The notes below the pieces were generated by a model. It did not search any database. It saw nothing but the letters and a program-made list of their open reading frames with translations, and was not told where the DNA came from. A stretch of DNA of 64,000 nt from Eubacteriales bacterium. GTDB taxonomy: Bacteria > Bacillota > Clostridia > Oscillospirales > CAG-272. The stretch covers positions 3,790-67,789 of the forward strand of contig JAZNXR010000002.1 in the NCBI GenBank assembly GCA_045593985.1, in the 5' to 3' direction. This document shows positions 1,228-63,105 of this stretch, piece by piece. The first letter of the stretch is position 1, and each line of letters opens with the position of its first letter. The position numbers and the translations under genes were made by a program.

Positions 1228-1283
1228 ATACTGTAACCGCCCGCCATAATGACGGATGAGATGTGGGCGGCAACGCCGCCGTT

Positions 1284-1309
1284 GTAGGGTGCGACGTCCC
1301 CGACGCACC
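1284..1309 (+). repeat. R1 GTAG-headed hairpin (REP-like)
   Basis: GTAG GGTGCG A CG TCCC CG A CGCACC: 6-bp stem, A.A mismatch, CG clamp, 4-nt loop. Confidence 0.8.
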
Positions 1310-1363
1310 GCTGCTCCCACGCCGGCTCTATTGCTGGGGGGTAAAACGCTTTTCTGCGTTTTC

Positions 1364-14764: not shown

Positions 14765-14812
14765 TTGCGCTCGCAAATATTTGATCGTATGTAACCTATG
14801 CAATACGCAAAT

Positions 14813-14951
14813 GTAGGGACAGGCGTCCTCGACTGTCCGTGCGGGATAAATGAATCTTTATTCAACGCAAACGTTCAAATATTTCCGTATAAATTAACCG
14901 TTTTGATAAACCAAAACGTGGTAACGGACGGTCGAGGACGCCCGTCCCTAC
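14813..14951. repeat. R1 inverted doublet (REPIN-like): two GTAG-headed hairpins, 87-bp spacer
   Basis: 14813-14838 is GTAGGGACAGGCGTCCTCGACTGTCC. Reverse complement of 14926-14951 is GTAGGGACGGGCGTCCTCGACCGTCC. Confidence 0.85.
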
Positions 14952-23552: not shown

Positions 23553-23720
23553 CCGTTCCTGCGAGATCCCGATGCCACAAGTGGCATCGCCCTACGGGTT
23601 CGACTGCATCCCGCCGTGTCATTCTGAGTGTAGCGAAGCGGAATCGAACGGCGAAGCCGCGCGAAGTGCAACGAAGCGGAATCTCGGCGGGATTACGCTC
23701 AGGATGACACGCAGGAACGG
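23553..23720 (+). repeat. R3 element (one 96-nt head unit, core, tail) bounded by 11-bp inverted flanks
   Basis: About 98% identical to the unit at 62832-62927. Flanks CCGTTCCTGCG/CGCAGGAACGG. Fills the mnmG-rsmG spacer. Confidence 0.85.
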
Positions 23721-25591: not shown

Positions 25592-25614
25592 CGTATTTTC
25601 CGTAAAAGTGTTAT

Positions 25615-25724
25615 TTGCCTCGCCCTTTGGGAGAGGTGTCGGTCGAAGACCGACGGAGAGGGTAAAAATATCTTTGAGATCCCCTCTCACCGCCTAAAGG
25701 CGGAGCTCCCCCGGAGGGGGAGCC
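25615..25724 (+). repeat. R2 long element (five consecutive hairpins)
   Basis: TTGCCTCGCCC-TTTG-GGAGAGG, TCGGTC-GAA-GACCGA, GAGAGGG..CCCTCTC, CGCC-TAAA-GGCG, GCTCCCC-CGGA-GGGGAGC. Paralogous copy at 28319-28417. Confidence 0.85.
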
Positions 25725-28283: not shown

Positions 28284-28318
28284 GGAAAAAGGAAAGCAAA
28301 ATCGGTAAGAGCGTTGTT

Positions 28319-28417
28319 TTGCCTCGCCCTACGGGAGAGGTGTCAACCGAAGGTTGACGGAGAGGGGAAATCGCCCTCTCACCCGACTTCGTCGGGAGCT
28401 CCCCCCAAGGGGGAGCC
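28319..28417 (+). repeat. R2 long element, second copy
   Basis: Same five-hairpin order as 25615-25724, with covarying stems (TCAACC-GAA-GGTTGA; CCGAC-TTC-GTCGG). Confidence 0.85.
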
Positions 28418-40910: not shown

Positions 40911-40951
40911 TGGAAAATTTTAGATATTTAAGGTATTTTTGTGACTTAGTT

Positions 40952-41089
40952 GTAGGGGGCGACGTCCTCGACGCCCCGTTGCAACGTTTGAAATCTTAAG
41001 ACCGTTTCTCACTGTTGCATAAATGTTTATAATTATACAAAAAAGATACATTGCTTTTAATGCGGGGCGTCGAGGACGTCGCCCCCTAC
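40952..41089. repeat. R1 inverted doublet (REPIN-like), 27-nt perfect arms, 86-bp spacer
   Basis: GTAGGGGGCGACGTCCTCGACGCCCCG at 40952, and its exact reverse complement ending at 41089. Confidence 0.9.
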
Positions 41090-42410: not shown

Positions 42411-42497
42411 AAGGGGCAAACCGTTTGAATTTTGCCATGCAAAATTCTGCACACGTGAAACCCCTTTCGTTTTAAGTAAGCTTTGTGACGTTTAATT

Positions 42498-42523
42498 GTA
42501 GGGACAGGCGTCCTCGACTGTCC
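42498..42523 (+). repeat. R1 GTAG-headed hairpin, solo copy
   Basis: Identical to 14813-14838. Followed by GGTGCTCCCACGC, as the copy at 1284 is followed by GCTGCTCCCACGC. Confidence 0.85.
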
Positions 42524-42577
42524 GGTGCTCCCACGCTCTGTACATTCTCTATTAAAAAAGATAGATCGAACGTCGTC

Positions 42578-42622
42578 TTGCCTCGCCCTTCGGGAGAGGT
42601 GCCCCGAAGGGGCGGAGAGGGT
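42578..42622 (+). repeat. R2 half element (first two hairpins only)
   Basis: TTGCCTCGCCC-TTCG-GGAGAGGTG CCCC-GAA-GGGG CGGAGAGGGT. Confidence 0.8.
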
Positions 42623-42624
42623 GT

Positions 42625-42658
42625 AAAAAAGGACGCCTTTCGGCGTCCTTTTCTTTTG
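42625..42658 (-). terminator. rho-independent terminator of the SDR/pdxK operon
   Basis: AAGGACGCC-TTTC-GGCGTCCTT with flanking A and T runs. Confidence 0.85.
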
Positions 42659-44481: not shown

Positions 44482-44557
44482 GGGAGCATAGCTCAGCTGG
44501 GAGAGCATCTGCCTTACAAGCAGAGGGTCATAGGTTCGAGCCCTATTGTTCCCACCA
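44482..44557 (+). tRNA. tRNA-Val (anticodon TAC), CCA encoded
   Basis: Cloverleaf folded by hand: acceptor GGGAGCA/TGTTCCC, anticodon loop CTTACAA, T-loop TTCGAGC. Confidence 0.9.
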
Positions 44558-44561
44558 TCAC

Positions 44562-44638
44562 GGCCCGGTAGTTCAGTTGGTTAGAACGCTAGCCTGTCAC
44601 GCTAGAGGTCAGGGGTTCGAGTCCCCTTCGGGTCGCCA
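44562..44638 (+). tRNA. tRNA-Asp (anticodon GTC), CCA encoded
   Basis: Acceptor GGCCCGG/TCGGGTC, anticodon loop CTGTCAC, T-loop TTCGAGT. Confidence 0.9.
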
Positions 44639-44683
44639 CTTTTATTTTCGGCATTCTGCCAAGCTTATTGAGTTGCCGAATAT

Positions 44684-44759
44684 GCCTCGATAGCTCAGTT
44701 GGTAGAGCAGTAGACTGAAAATCTACGTGTCGTTGGTTCAATTCCGACTCGAGGCACCA
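44684..44759 (+). tRNA. tRNA-Phe (anticodon GAA), CCA encoded
   Basis: Acceptor GCCTCGA/TCGAGGC, anticodon loop CTGAAAA, T-loop TTCAATT. Confidence 0.9.
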
Positions 44760-44803
44760 AAAAAGAATAAGTGTGTATCGCAGCCACGCGGTACATACGG
44801 TAT

Positions 44804-44879
44804 GCGGATTTAGCTCATTTGGTAGAGCGCCACCTTGCCAAGGTGGAGGTGGCGGGTTCGAGCCCCGTAATCCGCTCCA
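44804..44879 (+). tRNA. tRNA-Gly (anticodon GCC), CCA encoded
   Basis: Acceptor GCGGATT/AATCCGC, anticodon loop TTGCCAA, T-loop TTCGAGC. Confidence 0.9.
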
Positions 44880-44881
44880 AC

Positions 44882-44922
44882 AAAAAAGCCTAATTTGTCT
44901 ACTTGACAAATTAGGCTTTTTT
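44882..44922 (+). terminator. rho-independent terminator of the tRNA operon
   Basis: A6, GCCTAATTTGTC-TACTT-GACAAATTAGGC, T6. Confidence 0.9.
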
Positions 44923-45075
44923 GAATGATGTTTGCCTTCGACAAATGATGTCGTTTCACTAATGATGCCGCTGACGCTAATGATGTCGGCTTCGCCTAAT
45001 GTTTTGCGGCAAACATCGCATCATTGCGAGTGAAACGAGCAACATCATTATGCGGAGCATAACATCATATCGCCG
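44923..45075. repeat. R4 array: AATGATG-headed units (17-20 nt period) followed by CATCAT(T)-tailed units
   Basis: AATGATG at 44924, 44944, 44961, 44979 (and AATGTTT at 44998). CATCATT at 45019 and 45043, CATCAT at 45063. Confidence 0.7.
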
Positions 45076-45168
45076 TAGGCGATGCCTATTTAATCAAGGC
45101 AAAACGAAAGTAGAATACTTTTACTTACTTTTACCTTGGTTCTGCTCCGTTTGGTTACTCTTTCGCAG

Positions 45169-45198
45169 AAAAAAGCAAGTCGAAAGACTTGCTTTTTT
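45169..45198. terminator. orphan bidirectional terminator-like hairpin
   Basis: A6, GCAAGTC-GAAA-GACTTGC, T6. No ORF on either side. Confidence 0.7.
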
Positions 45199-45286
45199 CA
45201 ATGATATCCGCCCTTCGGTCGGAATAAATCATCTTCGATGATGAAATCACCTTCGGTGATGAGATCCGTCGGGGCGACGGATGAGG
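45199..45286 (+). repeat. string of small hairpins related to R4/R2b (ends in GGATGAGG)
   Basis: ATCAC-CTTCG-GTGAT and ATCCGTC-GGGGC-GACGGAT, with GATGA motifs between. Confidence 0.5.
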
Positions 45287-45365
45287 TTTTCATTCATTTG
45301 TTAAACATCTTTTTGTTTTTACATATAATGTTATTACCCCAATAAAAATAATTTCTCAAAATCCA

Positions 45366-45394
45366 TTGACAAAACGGTCGCTCCGTGATATAAT
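45366..45394 (+). promoter_or_regulatory. sigma-A promoter of tRNA-Cys
   Basis: TTGACA, 17-nt spacer, TATAAT preceded by CGTGA. Confidence 0.8.
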
Positions 45395-45411
45395 ACCCAT
45401 GTTCCGAAAAC

Positions 45412-45486
45412 GGCGACATAGCCAAGTGGTAAGGCCACGGTCTGCAAAACCGTTATTCTCCAGTTCAAATCTGGATGTCGCCTCCA
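45412..45486 (+). tRNA. tRNA-Cys (anticodon GCA), CCA encoded
   Basis: Acceptor GGCGACA/TGTCGCC, 3-bp D stem, anticodon loop CTGCAAA, T-loop TTCAAAT. Confidence 0.9.
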
Positions 45487-62712: not shown

Positions 62713-62735
62713 TGATTTAGCAAATGTCTTTTTGC

Positions 62736-63006
62736 GAGATCCCGATGCCACAAGCGGCATCGCCCTACGGGTTCGACTGCGTCCCGCCGTGTCATTCTGA
62801 GTGAAGCGAAGCGGAATCGAACGGCGAAGCCGAGATCCCGATGCCACAAGTGGCATCGCCCTGCGGGTTCGACTGCGTCCCGCCGTGTCATTCTGAGTGT
62901 AGCGAAGCGGAATCGAACGGCGAAGCCGCGCGAAGTGCAACGAAGCGGAATCTCGGCGGGACTTCGCTCAGGATGACAAGGCGGGACTCCGCTCAGGATG
63001 ACCGCG
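62736..63006 (+). repeat. R3 element with a tandemly duplicated 96-nt head unit and a duplicated tail
   Basis: Units at 62736-62831 and 62832-62927 (period 96, a few mismatches). Core at 62928-62953. Two tails GGCGGGAC..CGCTCAGGATGAC at 62954-62977 and 62980-63002. Confidence 0.9.
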
Positions 63007-63105
63007 AAAAAACAAGCTCTGATATACGACCTATCTCCGCCAAGAGTGCGGACAAAATATAAAACTAATCTTCGCTTTGCGAGGAAAAGAAAGAAGGTTT
63101 ATTTA

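Follow-up and report, generated by a model that had tools for sequence, protein, structure and literature searches.

We asked what kind of element lies in the spacer between mnmG and rsmG on contig JAZNXR010000002.1 of a Eubacteriales bacterium, where a 168-nt sequence, R3, carries complementary blocks in the order A-B-A′-B′. A simple inverted repeat would not have this order, and a sequence-only reading of the 64,000 nucleotides analysed (hereafter the window) had proposed a pseudoknot or two mutually exclusive helices. Our analysis indicates that R3 is probably a nested palindromic repeat of the REP/REPIN/MITE kind, non-coding and non-autonomous, and thus ordinary bacterial junk or selfish DNA rather than a novel pseudoknotted RNA.

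The four blocks were found where they had been placed (Table 1). A and A′ form a perfect 9-bp inverted repeat (9/9 positions complementary), and B and B′ are complementary over 13 bp, with 11 Watson-Crick pairs and two T.G positions. R3 had also been said to fill the mnmG-rsmG spacer; it is located there, but together with its flanks it takes up only 168 of the 216 nt. Both neighbouring genes are on the minus strand, so the plus-strand-oriented R3 is antisense to them. The flanking arms of this locus (locus 1) are perfect complements over 11 bp, and 88% complementarity persists when the comparison is lengthened to 16 nt. The flank palindrome CGCAGGAACGG was considered as a repeat in its own right and rejected, as it gave four near-matches against 1.4 expected and exact matches only at the two flanks. 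We also found two interleaved pairs that the earlier description lacked: C with C′, which appears in the inverted-repeat finder output as CGAGATCCCG (23562-71) with CGGAATCTCG (23677-86), and GTTCGA (23598-603) with TCGAAC (23644-49). The window contains six occurrences of the B-type 13-mer where 0.19 would be expected, all of them at the two R3 loci, i.e. the mnmG-rsmG spacer and the glgB-glgC spacer at 62.8 kb (locus 2).

Table 1. Positions of the R3 features at both loci, of the shared 20-mer in other contigs and of GTAG-type units in the window
Feature	Position	Strand	Remarks
Left flank arm CCGTTCCTGCG	23553-23563	+	locus-specific; partner 23710-23720; no repeats elsewhere in window
Block C, head of outer reverse-oriented unit, GAGATCCCG	23563-23571	+	complementary to 23677-85
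m1 hairpin CGATGCCAC-AA-GTGGCATCG	23570-23589	+	inverted-repeat finder
GTTCGACTGC, outer-unit part homologous to reverse complement of 23640-23649	23598-23607	+	
Block A ATCCCGCCG, 5′ arm of bracket stem round inner unit	23608-23616	+	
Inner forward unit F	23618-23685	+	head block B GTCATTCTGAGTG 23618-30; tail block C′ CGGAATCTC 23677-85
Core of inner unit F, cross-phylum 20-mer AGCGAAGCGGAATCGAACGG	23632-51	+	
Two GCGAAGC mini-hairpin motifs in inner unit F	23633, 23651	+	
Block A′ CGGCGGGAT, 3′ arm of bracket stem	23685-23693	+	
Block B′ CGCTCAGGATGAC, outer-unit tail and right end of mobile unit	23696-23708	+	invariant in all copies
Right flank arm CGCAGGAACGG	23710-23720	+	
Second locus, glgB-glgC spacer	62728-63012	+	flanks CTTTTTGCG and CGCGAAAAAA
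Outer R3 of locus 2	62736-62831 and 62978-63002	+	
Complete inner R3 of locus 2	62832-62977	+	ends identical to those that the flanks define at locus 1
20-mer AGCGAAGCGGAATCGAACGG in other contigs	L014 4975-5011; L023 1633-1700; L010 7628-7648; L018 1627-1646; L022 5-25		
GTAG-type units	14812-14828 (+)/14936-14952 (-); 42497-42513; 40950-41089; 1282-1311		

The origin of the block order is most clearly seen by removing the segment from A to A′, which leaves a 60-nt shell. Over their full lengths, this shell and the reverse-complemented inner unit F (68 nt) aligned with a score of 40. Shuffled controls scored 9.9±3.8 (highest 25), none of 1000 reached 40, and the direct orientation scored 15. 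Therefore, R3 is a repeat unit that carries an oppositely oriented copy of itself, and its blocks run rc-head GAGATCCCG, A, head (B), tail CGGAATCTC, A′, rc-tail (B′). Because the forward unit lies inside its own reverse complement, the interleaving of B:B′ and of C:C′ follows from homology alone. Interleaved complementary blocks with one compensatory change resemble a pseudoknot, and the fact that they arise here from inverted self-nesting is a caution for scans that look for the A-B-A′-B′ order.

The 62.8-kb locus had been treated as a single copy, which is wrong. Its two left halves, at 62736-62831 and 62832-62927, precede two right halves, at 62928-62977 and 62980-63002, and R3 appears here to have landed inside another R3 copy. 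The left end of the mobile unit, at 23563, has the same boundary at 62736 and at the nested copy at 62832. A further contiguous pairing of 26 nt joins [A1 B1] (62781-62806) to [B′2 A′1] (62962-62987), and there is an extra inverted-repeat pair, GTTCGACTGCG with CGGAATCGAAC. Blocks A and A′ of this locus read GTCCCGCCG and CGGCGGGAC, and the A-to-G change matched by T-to-C that had been reported between the loci is indeed present. The outermost flanks, described as unlike between loci yet complementary within each, bear this out in the main, but those of locus 2 pair weakly: CTTTTTGCG and CGCGAAAAA pair as GCG:CGC with one T.G and 4-5 T:A, and no exact 6-nt complement was found between them. 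Both glgB and glgC are on the plus strand. At both loci, R3 itself is oriented along the plus strand and is thus sense to glgB-glgC and antisense to mnmG-rsmG. Since the GC skew is positive over nearly the whole window, both R3 copies are oriented alike relative to replication, which with two loci is weak evidence.

We collected five to six R3 copies, three of them in the window. The others include one in Clostridia bacterium RGIG4652 (L024) and, as a shorter version, one in an uncultured Ruminococcus (L009), and covariation was examined over the locus 1 copy (W1), the inner and outer copies of locus 2, L024 and L009. Over these five copies, which are few and related so that the result is indicative only, double-sided changes were seen in 4/8 pairs of A:A′, and 0/500 shuffles reached the observed score. 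One of these is the A-T to G-C change in the window and three further ones are in L009 (arms GCGTCGCC and GGCGACGC); the L024 stem has one mismatch. Shuffle and slide controls favoured the register that had been named. A:A′ is therefore a real local stem that brackets the inner unit, as had been argued from the single compensatory change. The m1 stem is likewise kept through double changes in L024, L009 and a third relative's contig, L039, and the outer copy of locus 2 (62743-62762) shows an A.C intermediate. For B:B′, the case for a selected pairing did not survive: 0/13 pairs show a double change, B′ is invariant while B varies one-sidedly, and L009 has two C.A mismatches. RNAalifold picked B:B′ from the R3 copies on energy, without covariation credit. 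B and B′ are two diverged copies of one conserved unit end.

The two helices also bear on the proposed topologies. In an H-type pseudoknot, linkers of 1 and 2 nt are unable to cross helices of 13 and 9 bp. R3 shares the block order 5′-A-B-A′-B′-3′ with such a pseudoknot, but its linkers are too short (A-B, 1 nt; A′-B′, 2 nt), one of its stems lacks covariation and it has no consistent transcribed strand. As a result, the 9-bp A:A′ and 13-bp B:B′ helices cannot coexist; the pseudoknot is discarded and the two helices are alternatives, as the mutually exclusive topology had it.

Relatives were reached via RsmG and GlgB homologues. Where their flanking proteins are 90-98% identical, both R3 spacers hold unrelated hairpin repeats or nothing. 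Their mnmG-rsmG spacers contain a 'GGCTCCCTCC' or a 'CCTTCTCC' repeat and no R3, and the proposed empty-site comparison was defeated at locus 1 because these spacers share nothing with the window beyond the ribosome-binding region. The glgB-glgC spacer is 4 nt or 40 nt long at 78% GlgB identity, holds a GGCTCCCTCC repeat of ~200 nt at ~92%, and at 98%, in the closest relative (L049/L050), is occupied by a GTAG-type REPIN-like element with a 28-bp inverted repeat. R3 itself is found at an identical left junction in the glgB-glgC spacer of L039, L056 and L057, all contigs that end inside R3. Both spacers serve several unrelated repeat families as hot spots. In this uncultured ruminant-gut Clostridia lineage, at least four unrelated hairpin-repeat families swap in the two operon spacers, between strains with 90-98% identity in their flanking proteins. 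In GCA_017621655.1 (L033 6500-6767 and L042 11845-12045), both R3 spacers hold a ~200-nt 'GGCTCCCTCC' hairpin repeat, in the orientations of R3.

R3 is present in multiple copies with insertion polymorphism, as is expected of a MITE, with three in the window and others in L024, L009, L039 and L056/57, and it is missing from the same spacers in close relatives. On this presence, absence and replacement, R3 would seem to move or turn over as a whole unit, GAGATCC...GGATGAC. Its termini (GAGATCC and GTCATCC) match at 5/7 positions, a weak terminal inverted repeat. The units start with GTCATTC or GAGATCC, without a 5′ GTAG or GTGG; GTAG appears only in an optional hairpin, GTAGAAACGC...GTTTCTAC, of L024, L009 and L039. 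No direct target-site duplication was found: the window flanks are reverse complements at both loci, and there was none at the L024 and L009 junctions. The left junctions end in CG in four of five cases. At locus 2, the junctions in relatives (…TTTAT/…/AAAACAC and …TTTCTT/…) suggest that R3 may have inserted at the boundary of a T-run and an A-run. The locus-specific complementary flanks could stem from a pre-existing palindrome (CCGTTCCT...AGGAACGG or TTTTT...AAAAA) or from templated extension. No transposase, RAYT or Y1 gene was found among the ~35 window ORFs scanned with Pfam.

These properties place R3 close to several known groups of repeats. Like REPs and REPINs, which are mobilised by the Y1-type RAYT, it consists of short intergenic palindromic units, with pairs of opposite units that may fold into long hairpins, and it has stems kept by compensatory changes, alternative folds and no coding capacity. 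For REPINs, both the maintenance of hairpins through compensatory changes and alternative folds have been described (PMC3116915). GTAG-type units also co-occur with R3 in the window (14812/14952 and 40950-41089) and replace it at glgB-glgC in L049. However, the R3 units are nested rather than adjacent, so that their arms interleave, although locus 2 does form the contiguous 26-nt arm pair, and the window copies lack the 5′ GTAG. Bacterial MITEs and modular repeats (Correia/NEMIS, ERIC, BOX and RUP) resemble R3 in being 100-300 nt long, intergenic and often within operons. Further likenesses are a modular build, in which internal modules are optional and give long and short forms, extensive secondary structure and insertions that are polymorphic between strains. 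In contrast to these, the 7-nt terminal inverted repeat of R3 is weak, its flanks are complementary rather than directly duplicated and no related IS was identified. No match to a known IS or MITE was found either, the nucleotide comparisons covering plasmid and phage collections. Palindrome-associated elements derived from IS200/IS605, which use single-stranded DNA transposition on the lagging-strand template, share with R3 the absence of clear terminal inverted repeats and of target duplication, hairpins near both ends, an orientation alike with respect to GC skew and the CG at left junctions, but no TnpA or TnpB was found among the ~35 window ORFs and a target motif can be sought at only five junctions. 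To our knowledge, the ends of R3 resemble no known end.

We propose that the outer shell would be a reverse-oriented unit (head GAGATCCCG, tail CGCTCAGGATGAC) whose loop region would hold a stem-bracketed, forward-oriented unit of the same kind (head GTCATTCTGAGTG, tail CGGAATCTC). The inner head would then match the outer tail (B:B′) and the inner tail the outer head (C:C′), in an order that would necessarily be interleaved. The selected or self-correcting structures would be the local hairpins, namely A:A′, m1 and the locus-specific flank stem, which may fold while the DNA is single-stranded, or else in read-through RNA. Copying could be carried out by some trans-acting enzyme or by a recombination or template-switch process, and any effect on the host would probably be that of a stable stem-loop within the operon transcript.

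That R3 is a structured RNA (a cis-regulator or a small RNA) whose A:A′ and B:B′ helices form a switch or a pseudoknot is very unlikely. On the plus strand the two T.G positions of B:B′ are wobbles, and it had been noted that they are so only in a plus-strand RNA, but C:C′ and the B:B′ of L009 carry C.A on that same strand; the wobble asymmetry is inconsistent, and plus-strand selection was rejected. The folding itself is better than that of shuffled sequences (z = -4.0), and constrained plus-strand folds with A:A′ or B:B′ differ by only 1.6-3 kcal/mol as RNA (2.5-4.7 kcal/mol as DNA; the minus-strand B:B′ folds were discarded, as enforced A.C pairs made their energies meaningless). A:A′ and m1 do co-vary, whereas B:B′ does not, and the short linkers stand against a pseudoknot. 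Further points against a role as a strand-specific RNA are the opposite strand of R3 relative to the host operon at the two loci, its absence or replacement in relatives with 90-98% identical neighbours, its self-nesting and the inversion of its inner part in L039. Scans showed no promoter or terminator consensus flanking either R3 copy, and the proposed Rfam search gave no match over R3 at gathering score and only chance-level matches at E<=10.

The L039 sequence could also be read in another way. Its segment after A matches the inner segment of the window reversed, the left part being collinear, so both orientations exist between lineages, and R3 might be a small invertible DNA segment with A and A′ as inverted repeats, serving as a phase-variation switch. 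In that isomer, B would lose its complementarity to B′. We consider such a switch highly improbable: the segment is only ~68 bp, the scan found no promoter in it, no recombinase gene was found nearby among the window ORFs scanned with Pfam, and the flipped copy has diverged in the middle and is therefore not a recent flip of the same sequence. Inversion of hairpin loops is a frequent passive rearrangement of stem-loops. Rather improbable, too, are immobile hairpins of conserved host function (a terminator, an mRNA stabiliser or a single-stranded DNA priming signal) recruited at these operons. TTTT does follow the flank stem of locus 1 on the plus strand, but it is antisense to the operon and missing at locus 2, and the terminator scan was negative on both strands. 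GCGAAGC occurs at the R3 loci six times on the plus strand and not once on the minus strand. Motifs of this type are unusually stable DNA mini-hairpins and mark single-stranded DNA priming sites in phages and plasmids (PMC13037366). They hint at, and do not prove, a single-stranded DNA stage. The shared orientation of both copies relative to GC skew would fit this reading, but rests on two loci, and relatives lack R3 at both sites.

Of the 16 genome loci returned by a collection scan for the 20-mer AGCGAAGCGGAATCGAACGG, only L024 and L009 are R3-like; L014 and L023 hold distant units, and the remainder are chance matches. Simpler elements with an R3-type unit (head GTCATYCTGAGYG, tail CGAAGGATCTC) were found in Gastranaerophilales (L014), Kapaibacterium (L023/27/28) and Anaerolineales (L011). 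In these, the unit and its reverse complement stand in mirror order (head, tail, loop, rc-tail, rc-head), i.e. as an ordinary long hairpin doublet, and such mirror-ordered doublets are carried by the Anaerolineales and Kapaibacterium contigs. The exact 20-mer was observed in Gastranaerophilales, Kapaibacterium and Lachnospiraceae contigs, always in a small hairpin context. It has one match in the RGIG4652 genome, and blastn with four R3 variants found no additional R3 copies in ~308 kb of related contigs; the R3 family is thus apparently low-copy in relatives. A metagenome scan gave four loci, none of them R3, blastn of R3 against plasmid and phage collections gave no match, three pattern scans of viral contigs returned chance matches or none, and a protein search with the open +2 frame of R3 (spurious ORFs) gave no candidate.

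It is conceivable, though we consider it unlikely, that R3 is one of a group of self-nesting hairpin elements, so far undescribed and spanning phyla, that share the core GTCAYYCTGAGYG-N-AGCGAAGCGGAATCGAACGG with GCGAAGC mini-hairpins and that integrate into existing hairpin loops, their own included, or make inverted flank copies on insertion. If true, this would amount to a mode of single-stranded DNA transposition or template switching that leaves complementary rather than duplicated flanks. The complementary flanks and the cross-phylum 20-mer are the sole parts of R3 with potential for something new.

A literature text search with the R3 sequence and peptides had the Bpu consensus of Cycas as its sole match. 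Bpu elements of Cycas mitochondrial DNA have a 36-nt consensus, AAGGTTATCCCTTTCCTGAGCGTAGCGAAGGGAAGG, which contains CCTGAGCGTAGCGAAGG, almost the loop motif of the bacterial unit, and share with the R3 unit the loop motif CTGAG(C/T)GTAGCGAAG with a short stem around it (PMC8297867). They differ in their plant-organelle host and in a much shorter unit, and convergence on GCGNAGC mini-hairpins may account for the resemblance.

Other repeats occur in the window. GTAG-type REP/REPIN-like units are of two types, TGTAGGGACAGGCGTCC... and TGTAGGGGGCGACGTCCCCGACGCCCCG, two of them arranged as inverted doublets, and the second type fills the glgB-glgC spacer of L049/L050. A third repeat family, CCTCGCCCTTTGGGAGAGG + GTCGGTCGAAGACCGAC + GGAGAGGG, lies at 25614-25666, 28318-28370 and 42577-42629. 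The true length of mnmG is ~622 aa from its homologues, against 655 aa for the longest ORF, which puts the third-family copy at 25614 upstream of the real mnmG start. The Ruminococcus contig L009 (238-2376) is syntenic with 42446-40034 of the window at ~83% nucleotide identity, and upstream of the GH32 gene it has an R3-like short element where the window has other repeats (40-42.4 kb). A cluster of five tRNA genes lies at 44482-45483.
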